This document shows positions 1 to 63,950 of a DNA stretch of 63,950 nucleotides, piece by piece. The notes beneath the pieces were generated by a model, which had not been told where the DNA came from, searched no databases, and was given only the letters and a program-made list of their open reading frames with translations. Numbering within the stretch: position 1 is the stretch's first letter; every line of letters begins with the position of its first letter. The stretch is taken from contig JAQCIJ010000002.1 of the NCBI GenBank assembly GCA_027592135.1, forward strand, positions 1-63,950. The letters run 5' to 3'. Made by a program: the position numbers and the translations under genes. Source of the stretch: a bacterium (GTDB taxonomy: Bacteria; Patescibacteriota; Gracilibacteria; Peribacterales; Peribacteraceae).

Positions 1-70
1 GAGAGGGGGATCAAGGGGGTGAGGGTAAGAGCAGGTAGTAATGAACACTACAGGGTCAGTGAGCAGTTAC
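1..70. repeat. 70-bp repeat R, copy 1
   Basis: Bases 1-70 (gagagggggatcaagggggtgagggtaag...gagcagttac) recur base for base at 871-940. The flanks diverge immediately after both copies. Copy 1 may extend left of the window edge. Confidence 0.95.
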
Positions 71-140
71 GATCGGGTTTGTGTTCTGCATCCGTAAATT
101 GCGTTTGAATATCTTCTGCACTAAACGTATTAGGTTCACC

Positions 141-193
141 GTGGATATATAGTGGACCAGCCGACGCCAACAGCAAAAAGAGGATAGTGGATA
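141..193 (-). repeat. Small TATCCAC-flanked element, copy A (reverse orientation)
   Basis: The reverse complement reads tatccactatcc...ttggcgtcggctggtccactat...atatccac. The 22-mer ttggcgtcggctggtccactat (149-170, reverse complement) is identical to 56817-56838, and both copies carry TATCCAC heptamers on their flanks. Confidence 0.8.
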
Positions 194-336
194 AAGGATA
201 TTGGGTAGAGGTTTAGGAAATGATCATAGATCAATATTTCCCTTCCTGAGTACATGTAGCACCCCTTCGGATACATCAATAACGGTAGACGCATCATTCT
301 CGGCAAGTGGACCATCATCGAGTAGTAGATCGGGTT

Positions 337-384
337 TAACTACTCACTGACCCCGCAGCGCCCTCACCCTGTCCCTCTCCCTCC
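337..384. repeat. Degenerate inverted copy of repeat R
   Basis: taactactcactgaccc...ccctcaccc...tccctctcc matches the reverse complement of R (taactgctcactgaccc...ccctcaccc...ccccctctc), with an internal deletion of about 20 bp. It is preceded by gatcgggttt (328-337), the same 10-mer that follows R copy 1 at 71-80. Confidence 0.75.
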
Positions 385-391
385 ATCCCGC

Positions 392-853
392 CTACCTACC
401 GGGAGAGGGAAAGATGCTCTTCTCTGTCTTATACGTGTGGACATACAGGGTGTTCGCGACTTCGGCTATGGAAGTACATACGTTTGATAGGTTGTTCATC
501 ACGTCTTTATTGCTAAAACGCAGTATTCTATATCCGCGTCGTTGGAGTTCTGATGCACGATCTTCATCGTACTCCTGTTGTGCATTATGGATATCTCCGT
601 CCAGCTCTATGATGAGTTTTGCTGAAACACACAGAAAATCCACGATGTATGGCCCGATGGGAACCTGACGCCTGAACTTTATCCCCTGACATTTTCTATT
701 ACGTAAACATCTCCAGAGAGCATCTTCTGCTTCTGTCATACCCTTACGCAAAGAACGTGCGTAAGATTTCTTTCTCTTGTGCATCTGCCATACGCGTTTA
801 TCTTCAGAGAACATAGGTTCATCATACTGCCTCGTTTCCCCCTCTCCCTGCAA
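392..853 (-). CDS. DUF559 (Vsr-like / restriction-endonuclease-fold) domain protein
   Basis: The translation has the family pattern LRKGMTEAEDALWRCLRNRK..GIKFRRQVPIGPYIVDFLC...IIELDGDIH....YDEDRASELQRRGYRILRFSN. The annotated start is a TTG, so the true start may be an internal ATG. Confidence 0.85.
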   Translation of the reverse strand: MQGEGETRQYDEPMFSEDKRVWQMHKRKKSYARSLRKGMTEAEDALWRCLRNRKCQGIKFRRQVPIGPYIVDFLCVSAKLIIELDGDIHNAQQEYDEDRASELQRRGYRILRFSNKDVMNNLSNVCTSIAEVANTLYVHTYKTEKSIFPSPGR

Positions 854-870
854 GGAGATTGGGCTGGCGG

Positions 871-940
871 GAGAGGGGGATCAAGGGGGTGAGGGTAAGA
901 GCAGGTAGTAATGAACACTACAGGGTCAGTGAGCAGTTAC
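871..940. repeat. 70-bp repeat R, copy 2
   Basis: Identical to bases 1-70. Confidence 0.95.
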
Positions 941-6187: not shown

Positions 6188-6651
6188 CCATTTGTTACAT
6201 TGGTATCGGCAGCAATATCAACGCTATAAAAAACATGCAGACGTGTGCGAGAGCTCTTCGTGATGATTTCCCCACTATCACCTTCTCCTCTGTGTATAAA
6301 ACTGCTGCACGTGACGAAATACATCAAGATGATTTTTTAAATGCGGTAGCAAAGATCGATACTAATGAATCACCAGAAGAAGTATATAAGAGACTCAAGT
6401 CTATCGAAGAAGATGGTAAGAAAGATCCTCCATACAAAAAAGGTCCTCGAACCATTGATCTCGATATCTTGCTCTATGAAGGAAATAACTATCCACTATC
6501 CACTATCCACTATCCACTCATTATTCCCCATCCAAGAATGCAAGAACGTAGGTTTGTTCTAGAACCGCTCTGCGAACTTGATGATAGCTGGAATGAGCAT
6601 CTGCAAAAAACTCTGGATCAGGCCTGTGACAAGGTAGATTTAGCTCTATAA
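6184..6651 (+). CDS. folK: 2-amino-4-hydroxy-6-hydroxymethyldihydropteridine diphosphokinase (HPPK), probable non-ATG start
   Basis: GPRTIDLDILLY...IPHPRMQERRFVLEPLCEL. The conserved N-terminus AICYIGIGSNIN lies upstream of the first ATG (6235) in the same frame, which is open from 6178. Candidate starts are ATA 6184 and ATT 6190. Confidence 0.8.
   Translation: MAICYIGIGSNINAIKNMQTCARALRDDFPTITFSSVYKTAARDEIHQDDFLNAVAKIDTNESPEEVYKRLKSIEEDGKKDPPYKKGPRTIDLDILLYEGNNYPLSTIHYPLIIPHPRMQERRFVLEPLCELDDSWNEHLQKTLDQACDKVDLAL
6489..6518. repeat. (CTATCCA)x4 heptamer array inside folK
   Basis: ctatcca occurs four times in tandem and encodes YPLSTIHYPL immediately before the conserved IPHPR motif. Confidence 0.9.
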
Positions 6652-21608: not shown

Positions 21609-21634
21609 CTATCGTACTTTATCCACTATCCTCT

Positions 21635-47394: not shown

Positions 47395-47422
47395 CTTTCC
47401 GCTTTCCGCTTTTCACTTCACT
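47395..47422. repeat. (CTTTCCG)-type heptamer array upstream of prfB
   Basis: Reads ctttccg ctttccg cttttca cttcact. The block cactttccg...ttttc(c)acttc.tcccc recurs at 51932-51959. Confidence 0.85.
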
Positions 47423-47435
47423 CCCCCCTTCCGCC

Positions 47436-48528
47436 GTGGAAGAACTACTCAGTAAAATCACAGCACTACAAACTGCCTTGAACACGGGGAAGGACAGTCT
47501 TTGAGGAAAGAGGTATCCCAACACTCATAGCCGAACTTGAAACACAGTCCCAAGATCCTAATCTCTGGGACAATCAATCTTCTGCTAATGCGTTATTTGC
47601 AAAACTGAAAAGCCTCAAAAAACAATGGGAACCTATAAGTACATTACTTTCAGAGATTGATGGATTACTGGAAATGGTAGAAGCATCTACGGCAGAAGAT
47701 CTTCCCGCACTCGAAGAAGAACTTACAGCACTTGAAGAGAAGTGGAATACGGCAGAGATCAATCTGTATCTCAGTGGAGAGTTTGATGTGAACAATGCAT
47801 ATCTCACACTCAGTGGGGGTGCAGGAGGAGTAGACGCACAAGACTGGGCAGCGATGCTACTACGTATGTATCTGCGCTACTGCGAACGCCAAGGATGGAC
47901 AGCTGAGCTTGTCGAAAAGACTGATGGGCAAGAAGCTGGCATTAAATCTGCAACCATTCATATTCAGGGAGAATTCGCCTTTGGCTTTCTACAATGTGAA
48001 CGCGGCACACATCGGCTTGTACGCCTCTCCCCTTTTAACGCAAAAAATTTGCGGCAAACAAGCTTCGCACTTGTAGAGGTATTACCAGAGATTACCGAAA
48101 CCACCGAAATAGAGCTGGAAGAGAAAGATCTGCGTATCGATACTTTTCGCGCTTCGGGGGCTGGAGGACAACATGTAAACAAGACCGATAGCGCAGTACG
48201 TGTAACACACGAGCCAACAGGGCTTGCGGTTGCCTGTCAAAGTGAACGGAGTCAGCAGCAAAATAAAATACGTGCCATGAATATGTTACGTGCCAAGCTC
48301 TTGGCAAAAAAACGAGCAGAAGATGCCGATCAAAAAGATGGCTTAAAAGGAGCAAATAAAAGTGCAGACTTTGGTCAACAGATTCGTTCGTATGTTTTGC
48401 ATCCCTATCAAATGGTAAAAGACCTTCGTACGAATATCGAGACTGGAAATACTGAAGGAGTGCTTGATGGTGATATACAAATGTTTATAGATGCAGAGCT
48501 TAAGCGAGAAGTAAAAAGTAATGAGTAA
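47436..48528 (+). CDS. prfB: Peptide chain release factor 2, requires a programmed +1 frameshift
   Basis: The frame-0 leader from GTG 47436 (VEELLSKITALQTALNTGKDSL) ends at TGA 47502-47504. The +1 frame continues EERGIPTLIAELETQSQDPNLWDN..., joining the listed ORF at 47674, which carries SGAGGQHVNKTDSAVR. Confidence 0.9.
47487..47505 (+). promoter_or_regulatory. RF2 autoregulatory +1 frameshift site (CTT TGA G with an upstream G-rich SD-like stimulator)
   Basis: The sequence is ggggaaggacagtCTTTGAg. This is the same logic as the E. coli site AGGGGGUAUCUUUGAC. Confidence 0.85.
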
Positions 48529-51434: not shown

Positions 51435-51589
51435 GCAAAATCGCAATTTTCTCTGAACTCTGGCAATTCCTCAAGATTCGTAAGAAGTGGTGGTTGCTCC
51501 CTATCCTAATGATGATTGTATTACTTGGATTAATCCTCGTTTTCGCTCAAGGGTCTGCACTTGCACCCTTCATATACACCGTTTTTTAG
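51431..51589 (+). CDS. DUF5989-like small membrane protein
   Basis: MSKIAIFSELWQFLKIRKKWWLLPILMMIVLLGLILVFAQGSALAPFIYTVF. The start overlaps the protease stop (ATGA). This family typically accompanies SxtJ and a carbamoyltransferase. Confidence 0.65.
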   Translation: MSKIAIFSELWQFLKIRKKWWLLPILMMIVLLGLILVFAQGSALAPFIYTVF

Positions 51590-51618
51590 TGGATAGTGGA
51601 TAGTGGATAGTGGATAGT
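51588..51618. repeat. (AGTGGAT)x4 heptamer array (reverse complement of the TATCCAC family)
   Basis: Four perfect copies. They overlap the DUF5989 stop codon and fill the spacer. Confidence 0.9.
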
Positions 51619-51923: not shown

Positions 51924-51931
51924 TTCCTTTA

Positions 51932-51959
51932 TCCACTTTCCGTTTTCCACTTCTCCCCA
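51932..51959. repeat. (TCCACTT)-type heptamer array upstream of the carbamoyltransferase
   Basis: Reads tccactt tccgttt tccactt ctcccca. It is related to the array at 47395-47422. Confidence 0.8.
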
Positions 51960-56615: not shown

Positions 56616-57620
56616 ATGAAAAAACCCGTTCTCCTCACCTTCGGCTTTCCTAACCCTAAATCACCCAGATATCGCAATCTAGTAGCTTTATATGAATCTG
56701 AAGGCTACGAGATCGTAGAATGCCTAACGACAAAGAAAGGTTTTATAAAAAAGAATATCGACCTCTATAAGCAATATAAGCATGTATCCACTATCCACTA
56801 CTTGCCGGCCATAGCCTTGGCGTCGGCTGGTCCACTATCCACTCTGTTAGTAAACTTCCCCGGCTACTACCTTATGCCATTGGCATGGATACTAACGAGA
56901 CATCCAAGGAAGCAACTGATCTTTGATGCATTTATCTCTATTTCCGACACACTGGTTTCGGATCGTAAACTCATCAGCTGGTTAAACCCGCTTGCATGGT
57001 TTTACTACGCCGCTGATGTCATCTCGACACATCTTGCAGACGAAGTACTTATAGACACGCAGGCGCACAAGAAATTCTTTCTCAAGAGATTTTTCTTAAG
57101 AAGTAAAAATGTCCGCGTGGTCTATGTCGGAACACTCGACGACCTGTTTCACCCAGGCCCAAAAGAAGACAGGCTCCCCGCAGGTAAATTCAATGCACTG
57201 TTTATTGGAAGTTACATTCCTCTACAAGGGATCGAGTATATTTTAGGTGCTGCAAAGATCTTGCACGACCAACCAGATATTCATTTTACACTGATAGGAA
57301 ACGGGCAAACGTATGACGAAATGACGATACTCGCAGAGAAACTTGAACTGATAAATGTCACGTTCCTCGACTGTATGCCCCTAGAGGAACTACCACACTA
57401 TCTTCGTTCGAGTGACGTCGCTCTGGGTATCTTTGGAACATCAGACAAGGCAAACCGTGTTATTCCACACAAAGTGTATGACGCCATTGGCTGTGGAGTT
57501 CCTGTAATCACAGCACAAAATCTCGCCATCGGTGAAAAGTTCACGAACGGCAAAGAAGTATTTCTCTGTGAGACTGGCAACGCGCAATCGCTTGCGGATG
57601 CAATACTCAATATGCAATGA
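56616..57620 (+). CDS. Glycosyltransferase (GT-B, family 1/4-like) carrying an in-frame repeat-element insertion
   Basis: C-terminal GT1 motif (IPHKVYDAIGCGVPVI). The N-terminal part contains STIHYLPAIALASAGPLSTLL, encoded by the TATCCAC-flanked element. Confidence 0.75.
   Translation: MKKPVLLTFGFPNPKSPRYRNLVALYESEGYEIVECLTTKKGFIKKNIDLYKQYKHVSTIHYLPAIALASAGPLSTLLVNFPGYYLMPLAWILTRHPRKQLIFDAFISISDTLVSDRKLISWLNPLAWFYYAADVISTHLADEVLIDTQAHKKFFLKRFFLRSKNVRVVYVGTLDDLFHPGPKEDRLPAGKFNALFIGSYIPLQGIEYILGAAKILHDQPDIHFTLIGNGQTYDEMTILAEKLELINVTFLDCMPLEELPHYLRSSDVALGIFGTSDKANRVIPHKVYDAIGCGVPVITAQNLAIGEKFTNGKEVFLCETGNAQSLADAILNMQ
56785..56845 (+). repeat. Small TATCCAC-flanked element, copy B (inside a GT ORF)
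   Basis: Reads tatccactatccacta...ttggcgtcggctggtccactat ccactc. The 22-mer at 56817-56838 is identical to the reverse complement of 149-170. Confidence 0.85.
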
Positions 57621-61092: not shown

Positions 61093-61109
61093 AACCCTAT
61101 TGTATACGG

Positions 61110-61158
61110 GAAATCAAGGAAATCGAAGAAATCAAGGATCCTTGATTTCCTTGATTGC
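61110..61158. repeat. Nonamer array forming a long palindrome centred on GGATCC
   Basis: Reads gaaatcaag gaaatcgaa gaaatcaag gatc cttgatttc cttgattgc. The core at 61128-61149 is a perfect 22-bp palindrome. It lies in a divergent spacer. Confidence 0.9.
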
Positions 61159-61191
61159 ATAGATTTCCTCATCCACTATGATTCATGAGTC

Positions 61192-62274: not shown

Positions 62275-63950
62275 ATGACTACTAGAGGAGGCTTTGATAG
62301 GGCAAACGTAGAAAGGCGAATTGCTCGCCTAACAGAAGAAGGAATAGGACAGGAAGACATCCAAGCACTGCTCCATAATAAAGAAGGGCCAAATCTTCTT
62401 GATCGTATCGTAGAGATTACAGAGGAATACAAAGATGCCTATCGAATAGGTATCGAAAGTGCTGACACAGAAAAACTCGGTGCTGATGCAGAAGATGCTG
62501 CCGCTAAAGCACTTCATCTGCCCACAGTTGATGAACTGATTGATATTGCAGAACGCATAGAAAATTTTCGTCAGGAAATAGTGCAACGCCTGTATATTTC
62601 TACAGAAACACTACTGAATATGCAGAGCAATAAAGTTATAGAACGAATAGGAAACATAACTATAGTTGATGATGTGCATACCCCGCCGGATGATTGGCGA
62701 AGACCAGATGGAGATGGAAGCGGTACAGAGTGGAACACCGAATTCTCTGAGCGTCTTGCAGCACTGCGATACATTCTCTACAGACTGAATATTGATCCAA
62801 ATTCGCAGAAGGAAGTTGTGATGCAAATTGGAAGAGTGCATGATGAAATGATGCGGAGGGTAAGCTATGTGAGCGTCTTTATTCGCCCGCTCAATCTTCT
62901 AGTGGAGCTTTGCAACCAAATAGGAAACAAAACCTTTGTATGGCGTAGTGATACAGTAGATGATATCGGTAAATATGCCGATATGGGAAAAGACGAAAAG
63001 AAAGCACTGCTAGATGAACGAGACGACATTGGGTGGCAAGTAGTGATGTCGGAAGGGTGGATGGAAAGACTAGAGGCAATACTGACTCAAAAAGACGGTA
63101 CGGAGAGACTCGCAGCACCTAAACCAAACAACCCACCTCATGAGCCTCGAATTCTAAGAGATATGTGGGAAAAAGAAGTTACAATACTATCATTCACTGA
63201 ACGAGTAGCAGAACTCAAAAAATTTCGAGAGGACTATCCAAATAAGTGGCCCCGTGCAGGAGGAAAAACTAAAAAGGAGAAGAGTTTGAGGCAATGGCTT
63301 AACAGAATGCGTATAAAATTACGTGATAATAATGAGTTTGCAAAAGGAGAAGGAAGGGTGTTGCTGGATATGGGTGTGGAAGCAGCAGAGGAAACAATAT
63401 CATTCACTGAACGAGTAGCAGAACTTAAAGAGTTTCGAGTGCAAAATCCGGATAGGTGGCCCAATCAAAAGGCAAAAAATAAAGAGGAGAAGAGTTTGGG
63501 GCAATGGCTTAACAATAAGCGTATAAAATTACGTGATAATAAAGAGTTTGCAAAAGGAGAAGAAAAGGTGTTGCTGGATATGGGTGTGGAAGCAGCAGAG
63601 AAACACCTATCATTCGATGAACGTGTAACAGAACTTAAAGAGTTTCGAGTGCAAAATCCGGATAGGTGGCCCCATGCAGGAGGAAAAAATAAAGAGGAGA
63701 AGAGTTTGGGGCAATGGCTTAAGAATAAGCGTATAAAATTACGTGATAATAAAGAGTTTGCAAAAGGAAAAGGACAGGTGTTGCTGGATATGGATGTGGA
63801 AGCAGCAGAGAAAACAATATCATTCACTGAACGTGTAACAGAACTTAAAGAGTTTCTAGGAGAAAATCCAAATAAGTGGCCCAATCAAATGGCAAAAAAT
63901 AAAGAGGAGAAGAATTTGGGGCAATGGCTTAACAGTATGCGTATAAAATT
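62275..63950 (+). CDS. Partial ORF (runs off the window): unknown N-terminal region plus tandem helicase-associated (HA)-like 70-aa repeats
   Basis: Manual translation from ATG 62275 is open to the window end. The repeat unit is SFTERVAELKEFRVQNPDRWPNQKAKNKEEKSLGQWLNNKRIKLRDNKEFAKGEEKVLLDMGV, which matches the HA-domain pattern (W..f.eL..F......P.......LG.W...qR........L.....L...G). Confidence 0.7.
   Translation, partial: MTTRGGFDRANVERRIARLTEEGIGQEDIQALLHNKEGPNLLDRIVEITEEYKDAYRIGIESADTEKLGADAEDAAAKALHLPTVDELIDIAERIENFRQEIVQRLYISTETLLNMQSNKVIERIGNITIVDDVHTPPDDWRRPDGDGSGTEWNTEFSERLAALRYILYRLNIDPNSQKEVVMQIGRVHDEMMRRVSYVSVFIRPLNLLVELCNQIGNKTFVWRSDTVDDIGKYADMGKDEKKALLDERDDIGWQVVMSEGWMERLEAILTQKDGTERLAAPKPNNPPHEPRILRDMWEKEVTILSFTERVAELKKFREDYPNKWPRAGGKTKKEKSLRQWLNRMRIKLRDNNEFAKGEGRVLLDMGVEAAEETISFTERVAELKEFRVQNPDRWPNQKAKNKEEKSLGQWLNNKRIKLRDNKEFAKGEEKVLLDMGVEAAEKHLSFDERVTELKEFRVQNPDRWPHAGGKNKEEKSLGQWLKNKRIKLRDNKEFAKGKGQVLLDMDVEAAEKTISFTERVTELKEFLGENPNKWPNQMAKNKEEKNLGQWLNSMRIK
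63190..63950 (+). repeat. 210-bp tandem repeat, at least 3.6 copies, coding
   Basis: The units start at 63190, 63400, 63610 and 63820 (each tcattcRMtgaacgWgtaRcagaact...). By eye, roughly nine-tenths of positions are identical between neighbouring units. Confidence 0.95.

Follow-up and report, generated by a model that had tools for sequence, protein, structure and literature searches.

A candidate REP-like mini insertion element of 30 nucleotides with heptamer arrays as landing sites in Peribacteraceae

How did the same 22 nucleotides, flanked in both places by TATCCAC heptamers, come to lie in frame inside a glycosyltransferase gene and once more between genes of an uncultured Peribacteria (CPR) bacterium? 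The 22-mer TTGGCGTCGGCTGGTCCACTAT occurs at 56817-56838 on the plus strand and at 149-170 on the minus strand of the window, as the whole stretch of 63,950 nucleotides analysed here is called; these are its only two matches at up to three mismatches, and none is expected from shuffled sequences. An earlier note on this DNA had reported both the identity of the two copies and their heptamer flanks, which are confirmed, and had seen in them a miniature mobile family with heptamer arrays as arms. Related loci (L001, L002, L024, L025, L026 and those of the species represented by L007) were compared, and a part of this picture stands: the family is dispersed, makes copies and has more than two members, but its supposed arms are older target arrays that are also present at orthologous sites. 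In our opinion, it is somewhat probable that a 30-nt core inside the arrays is a REP-like non-coding mini insertion element of Peribacteraceae, which uses heptamer arrays as landing sites.

The 22-mer was taken at first for the whole shared unit, and this view had to be given up. It consists of the last 14 nt of the 30-nt core and 8 nt of array; in the glycosyltransferase gene the unit is longer and occupies 56801-56830 (copy B), and the intergenic copy (copy A) has lost 9 nt of the core (Table 1). The filled site in the gene has the layout TATCCAC TATCCAC TA[CTTGCCGGCCATAGCCTTGGCGTCGGCTGG]TCCAC TATCCAC T. After deletion of 56801-56830 in silico, what remains is a (TATCCAC)x4.1 array, perfect and of normal size, and a protein of orthologous length, 10 codons shorter; the orthologs have 323-328 aa and are named Candidatus Peribacteraceae or Peregrinibacteria. 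In a protein alignment, the glycosyltransferase of the window has exactly 10 extra residues in comparison with its closest orthologs. Copy B encodes residues 63-71 (LPAIALASA) together with parts of codons 62 and 72. About 20 codons had been described as added in frame; the insert is in frame indeed, but only these 10 codons are new, and about 10 others belong to the array, which the orthologs have too.

At the same place and in the same phase, the orthologous genes contain arrays without the 30 nt: (TCTCAAC)x4.6-4.9 in L001 and L002, (TATCCRT)x4.7 in L025 and four TNTCCAY units in L026. More distant orthologs are without an array, and so the history of the site is read as a series from no array to array and then to array with core.

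The structure of the glycosyltransferase was predicted by AlphaFold2 with an alignment of orthologs as input. In the model obtained (mean pLDDT 91.7), residues 63-71 are the sole segment with values <50 and fall in the loop that connects helix 43-60 with strand 74-79, which answers the earlier question about the shape of the insert in favour of a surface loop. According to this model, the core-encoded insert sits in a disordered surface loop of the enzyme and would be a harmless addition of 10 residues. As read from its sequence, the core is open in five of its six reading frames.

Table 1. Positions of core copies, their flanks, empty sites and unoccupied arrays (window coordinates unless a locus is named)
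Feature	Position	Strand	Setting and remarks
Copy A, decayed core TTTGCTG/TTGGCGTCGGCTGG	157..177	-	intergenic
Degenerate heptamers 5' of copy A, TATCCTT TATCCAC TATCCTC TT	178..200	-	
Heptamer remnant 3' of copy A, TCCAC TATA TATCCAC	141..156	-	
Unoccupied (TATCCAC)x4.4 array	6488..6518	+	in frame in folK (HPPK)
Two-unit block TATCCAC TATCCTC, unoccupied	21620..21633	+	in 26-nt spacer between two minus-strand genes
Empty orthologous prfB 5'UTR site, CTTTCCG CTTTCCG CTTT^TCAC TTCAC... (^, junction)	47395..47425	+	heptamers present, 30 nt absent
Unoccupied (TATCCAC)x4.6 array	51587..51618	-	directly upstream of 98-aa ORF
Mixed heptamers TATCCAC TTTCCGT TTTCCAC TT, unoccupied	51924..51952	+	upstream of carbamoyltransferase gene
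Host gene, GT-B glycosyltransferase (Glycos_transf_1), 334 aa	56616..57620	+	Pfam match E 1e-17
Left part of host array, TATCCAC TATCCAC TA	56785..56800	+	target DNA, not element DNA
Copy B of 30-nt core, CTTGCCRGCCATAGCCTTGGCGTCGGCTGG = CTTGCCGGCCATAGCCTTGGCGTCGGCTGG	56801..56830	+	imperfect palindrome, GC-rich, in frame in glycosyltransferase gene
Right part of host array, TCCAC TATCCAC T	56831..56843	+	target DNA
Copy C	L003 19477-19506		~2 kb past right end of window, same genome; 28/30 identical
Copy D	L007 436-465		prfB 5'UTR of another Peribacteraceae species; 29/30 identical; locus also in L015-L018 and L020

Four copies of the core have been sequenced (A, B, C and D), each of them with an empty counterpart. 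Copy A carries a 9-nt deletion of GCCATAGCC and two substitutions and follows a Sua5/YrdC gene at a distance of 45 nt in the alternative assembly L021. Its counterpart is a paralogous locus at a loose contig end before position 177, with the sequence ...TATCCTC TT^TCCAC TATCCTC..., as predicted. Copy C, in the setting TTTCCAC TTTCCAC TT[..]TCCAC, belongs to a GT4 glycosyltransferase gene of the other coding strand, to whose product it contributes the residues SADAKAMADK, all 10 of which are absent from the aligned GT4 orthologs (19 of 19); its empty site is an intact (TTTCCAC)x4.4 array in the sister species L024. Copy D, which precedes the prfB start of L007 by about 20 nt, is flanked by TTTCCGT TTTCCAC TT and TCCAC TTATTTC, and the orthologous site of the window is empty also in strains X1 and X4 (two other runs). 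The earlier note had admitted that the segment would be ancestral if only two copies existed and orthologous glycosyltransferases carried it as well; since there are more than two copies and the orthologs are without the segment, this is not the case.

A scan of genome and metagenome contig collections for 19/20-mer matches, carried out on collections that do not contain the window's own copies, revealed a single further locus, in the 5'UTR of prfB of a Saanich-type Peregrinibacteria MAG; the remaining matches were at chance level and in GC-rich genomes. Viral contigs scanned for the core gave only chance matches, in contigs of 60% GC.

Some neighbours of the core copies deserve mention in their own right. 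Inverted copies of a 70-nt repeat stand on both sides of a DUF559 cassette (337-940), which occurs in two genomic contexts (window 1-940; L021 5540-6480); contigs cover it at a depth of about 1.6-2x and each of the two junctions at position 337 at 1x, and the segment 177-337 is also present twice. As a mobiliser of the core the cassette was rejected, just one copy being nearby. A reverse transcriptase (RVT_1; L017 999-2165) with the IGNLTSQ motif typical of diversity-generating retroelements lies 89 nt upstream of copy D. No core copy of the window genome is near a reverse transcriptase, and therefore the retroelement is treated as a coincidence and the core is not regarded as a part of it. 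The prfB gene of the window has a classical programmed +1 frameshift site, CTT TGA, at 47499-47505, which is kept in the L007 species.

The insertion point is the same in all four copies, T(A/T)^TCCAC, i.e. between nucleotides 2 and 3 of the unit nearest to the array centre, and the orientation relative to the heptamer is identical in all of them. Not one base of the target is duplicated at any of the four copies, and there are no inverted termini outside the core, the flanks being direct heptamers. The flanking units are the local ones, common to sister species: the GT4 gene has TTTCCAC, and the glycosyltransferase gene of the window has units of the TATCC type. The search for target duplications and empty sites that the earlier note had proposed was thus successful in its second part only, with an empty counterpart for each copy and no duplication.

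Copy number was estimated from the depth of Logan unitigs in two metagenome runs. In X1, an exact 43-nt unitig (56788-56830) has a depth of 199.6 against 34-38 for single-copy flanks and, in X2, a 40-nt unitig has a depth of 361 against 62-67. The census of copies, proposed earlier too, adds to the four sequenced copies an estimate of about 5-6 identical ones (~5.5), besides diverged ones; at least six different flanking contexts are joined to the composite in the unitigs, and further copies with 4-8 mismatches were found on contigs of equal depth. The summed core depth of about 30x is an upper bound, which overcounts overlapping unitigs. No insertion polymorphism was observed among the sampled strains in the contigs of the runs, in which rare variants are invisible; this is a point against the mobile element, whose current activity is conjectural.

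The L007 species is syntenic with the window, with about 72% nucleotide identity in coding DNA, and its RF2 is 79.6% identical at the protein level. The core is identical at 29 of 30 and 27 of 30 positions between species. At 72% identity, at least 29 matches in 30 have a probability of 7e-4, and judging by these sequences such a similarity at non-orthologous sites would be improbable for neutral DNA. A 7-bp stem is kept by substitutions, C5:G30 being replaced by T5:A30 in copy C and G7.T28 by A7-T28 in copy D; in this register all cells are paired, while the rival register breaks two. In a covariation analysis of the four sequences, 120 of 500 shuffles reached the observed value, which is not significant, so that the pairing-preserving changes are only suggestive. 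The predicted hairpin of copy B is no more stable than shuffled sequence (z 0.04), and the fold energies are unremarkable. Rfam 15 gave no match at the gathering threshold for the window, none at E<=10 for 56700-56920 and none at E<=1 for L017. With no Rfam or ARAGORN match, the core was rejected as a fragment of 5S rRNA, tRNA, SRP RNA or a group II intron, and unfit spacing and the lack of a T-run do not allow it to be considered a promoter or terminator.

Separate from the core, and older, are the heptamer arrays, which are heptanucleotide simple-sequence repeats with a length kept near 4.1-4.9 units. The window has 10 perfect arrays of period 7, and 50 dinucleotide shuffles have none; other periods are represented in the window by two perfect arrays each at most. 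In all the related DNA compared, perfect heptamer arrays cluster at 28-34 nt, or 4.0-4.9 units, and none longer than 4.9 units was found in about 150 kb of the window and related DNA. Pure TATCCAC arrays in folK (6488-6518) and, in reverse orientation, at 51587-51618 had been noticed before and are confirmed; the second of them has kept its unit and copy number in L001 (5047-5079) and L002 (2854-2886). The heptamers reported as a single unit at 21620-21632 do exist, but as a two-unit block ending at 21633, which has a 17-mer in common with the left flank of copy A. On the contrary, the unit reported at 61171-61178 is only partial, ATCCACTA, and at chance level. The mixed heptamers at 51924-51952 match the left flank of copy D over 21 identical nt.

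At the glycosyltransferase site, the arrays have kept their position, phase and length of about four units in five species, and the unit sequence shifts in concert: TATCCAC, TATCCRT, TNTCCAY or TCTCAAC (window 56785-56843; L001 10167-10200; L002 8534-8565; L025; L026). A (CTCAACT) array is located downstream of the GT4 gene in the orthologous place of two species, with 3 units in L003 (18496-18516) and 4.6 in L024 (5642-5673). Its unit is that of the L001 and L002 glycosyltransferase arrays, and so favoured units recur at unrelated loci. Another split array was found in L025 (7452-7508; GCA_964348745.1, contig CAYGDT010000033.1), where an (AATTTTC) array in a GDSL-like lipase gene is divided centrally by an unrelated GC-rich 24-nt twin hairpin, CCCAAAGGGACTGCCTTCGGTAGC, of 8 codons; the ortholog in L002 has the array alone, which is missing from the window and from L001.

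Repeats of other kinds are also present in this DNA. Back-to-back inverted arrays of a 9-nt unit (GGAAATCAA xN, then TCCTTGATT xN), predicted to fold into hairpins of about 30 bp, are found repeatedly between genes in several species (window 61108-61169; L001 2639-2690 and 4059-4116; L002 1849-1909, 2592-2672 and 12646-12715). At 63188-63950 of the window, 3.6 tandem copies of a 210-nt unit (88% matches) lie in an ORF that continues past the window end.

Heptanucleotide repeats are the commonest class of long simple-sequence repeats in prokaryotes (Mrazek 2007, as summarised in PMC4679880), and the TAACTGA repeats of Beggiatoaceae, with 2-6 copies, are mostly located just upstream of start codons (PMC4679880). 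The host arrays, whose 7-nt tandem unit is far above chance, belong among such LSSR/STRR-like repeats: like the LSSRs of Mrazek et al. (2007), the cyanobacterial STRRs and the TAACTGA repeats, they have a period of 7 and 2-6 copies (PMC4679880) and often stand directly upstream of start codons or fill intergenic spacers. Unlike LSSRs and STRRs, they show many different units in one small CPR genome, have a sharp length limit at 4.1-4.9 units, are kept at orthologous sites and also in frame inside genes, and serve as targets of a second element. Phase variation was looked for, and no indels were found at the glycosyltransferase or prfB array in contigs of four runs, which can hide rare variants. 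The idea of a phase-variable contingency locus was rejected on these grounds, no length variants being present in the sampled runs and 4.1-4.9 units being kept across five species.

The core itself is discrete, present in several copies and far better conserved between species than the surrounding genome. As it behaves as an orientation-specific and duplication-free unit with a defined target, it is likened most to REP/RAYT or IS200/IS605-type single-strand mobility. It may be selfish DNA moved in trans by a putative enzyme that would recognise its sequence or structure and, by likeness to these systems, the likeliest route would be a single-strand, hairpin-dependent one. The heptamer arrays would act as safe landing pads because the places they already occupy, for instance intergenic spacers and surface loops, are tolerant ones. 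The survival of the core within genes would be explained by its length of 10 codons (30 nt), by its five open frames out of six and by the loop that the array encodes. The search for a GIY-YIG motif gave nothing in the approximately 150 kb of DNA examined, which is a point against this reading.

The pattern of arrays and core could also arise without any enzyme, by copying between arrays via heptamer microhomology, and this alternative seems to us possible, albeit rather doubtful. Template switching or gene conversion would carry the core from one array to another: arrays would stall or slip in replication, and the nascent strand would pair with another array over a 6-7-nt unit of microhomology (TCCACTW on the left, TCCACT on the right), copy the core and return. 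Identical microhomology brackets every copy, the insertions are in phase with the array and leave no target duplication, and the orientation relative to the heptamer would necessarily be kept. Moreover, the array units evolve in concert and TATCCAC and CTCAACT recur at many loci, which suggests exchange between arrays. However, such copying would place no constraint on the core sequence, and yet this is identical at 27-29 of 30 positions in species whose coding DNA agrees at about 72%, and the substitutions in it maintain the pairing. Each copy is flanked by units of its recipient (the GT4 gene has TTTCCAC in both species), without any sign of flanking co-conversion, and the 24-nt insert of L025 has other array units, for which this mechanism would again require a donor with the right flanks.

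The same insert from L025 repeats the series from no array to array and then to array with a central hairpin, and array architecture may therefore matter more than the TCCAC sequence. A bolder reading, to which we would give only a small chance, is that of a hitherto undescribed system with two parts, heptamer arrays and small GC-rich hairpins, in which it would be the structure of an array of about four units, such as a slipped-strand loop-out or a protein-bound tetrameric site, that is recognised before the array is opened at its central unit. Short hairpin cassettes, such as the 30-nt core and the unrelated twin hairpin of L025, would be installed there. This would be transposase-free or structure-guided DNA mobility in CPR bacteria, and it would explain the sharp limit on array length. 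No paper on tandem repeats of Peregrinibacteria or on hairpin elements targeting heptamer arrays was found in a literature search that is still incomplete.

It is improbable that the core is a selected cis-acting motif, i.e. a protein-binding site or an RNA hairpin for mRNA stability or translation that was recruited repeatedly and is not selfish. Its strong cross-species conservation, the substitutions that preserve pairing and the position of one copy close to the prfB start in L007 would agree with such a role, but two of the four lie within genes, on opposite coding strands, one copy is decaying, close relatives are without the core at every site, Rfam gave no match and the fold z-scores are unremarkable. 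Least probable of all, and largely refuted by the orthologous core-less arrays, is a MITE-like mobile composite of heptamer arm, 22-mer and heptamer arm that would have brought the heptamers into the glycosyltransferase gene: several metagenome copies do have the common boundaries 56785/8 to 56843 (2.3 units, core and 1.7 units), but these are the boundaries of a standard four-unit array, arrays without the core exist at the exact position and phase in four related species and, for the GT4 gene, in the sister species, the flanks vary from copy to copy in agreement with the ancestral unit of each site, the arms are direct and not inverted repeats, and there is no target duplication.

Returning to the core as a REP-like insertion element, its place among known systems may be considered. 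Like REP/RAYT elements (PMC2817692, PMC3116915, PMC3733652), whose superfamilies are described in PMC3733652 and PMC2817692, it is a dispersed non-coding imperfect palindrome within the 20-40-nt range, has no target duplication and is presumed to be mobilised as a hairpin in trans; the 7-bp stem is present in all intact copies, with a stability in copy B not above that of shuffled controls. REPs are extragenic and usually have >100 copies, whereas this family has about 5.5 identical copies, a few tens at most, and half of those sequenced (two of four) are in coding sequences. The terminal GTAG or CGTC of REPs (PMC3733652) is absent, as the core ends are CTTG... and ...CTGG, and CGTC is only internal (positions 21-24, in the loop next to the 3' arm). 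Unlike that of REPs, its target is the centre of a heptamer tandem array. MITEs differ from the core by terminal inverted repeats, target-site duplication and a length of about 50-500 bp; here, 30 nt are flanked by direct heptamers and their removal restores an exact array.

Single-strand transposition of the IS200/IS605 type is orientation-specific, takes place next to a short conserved flank without target duplication and involves two subterminal hairpins. The core resembles these elements in its orientation-specific insertion next to a short conserved flank (…CCACTW^), the absence of target duplication and a hairpin as a plausible recognition feature; it differs in having 30 nt, a single hairpin and no transposase gene inside. 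IS1397 and ISKpn1, which insert in REPs, are full IS elements with transposases and target duplications, and the core is similar to them in the use of a harmless genomic repeat as a landing site. Rickettsia palindromic elements, described by Ogata et al. in 2000, reportedly have 100-150 bp and belong to Alphaproteobacteria; they are not known to prefer tandem repeats. The core, with its 30 nt and 10 added residues, is smaller and would be, like them, a selfish palindromic DNA in frame in protein genes, tolerated as an extra surface peptide (these elements are mentioned in PMC1779305).

If the proposed explanation is true, the core would be among the smallest insertion elements known, with an unusual target in the centre of heptanucleotide tandem arrays, and would link two poorly understood classes of bacterial repeats, heptamer simple-sequence repeats and REP-like hairpins, in organisms with tiny genomes. 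The junction TW^TCCAC, the fixed orientation and the matched empty and filled sites would provide a handle for the search for the enzyme. Ten-residue inserts such as 'LPAIALASAG' and 'SADAKAMADK' in Peribacteria proteins would have to be annotated as element-derived and not as functional motifs, and selfish DNA would have in these bacteria a route to add peptide loops to enzymes harmlessly.
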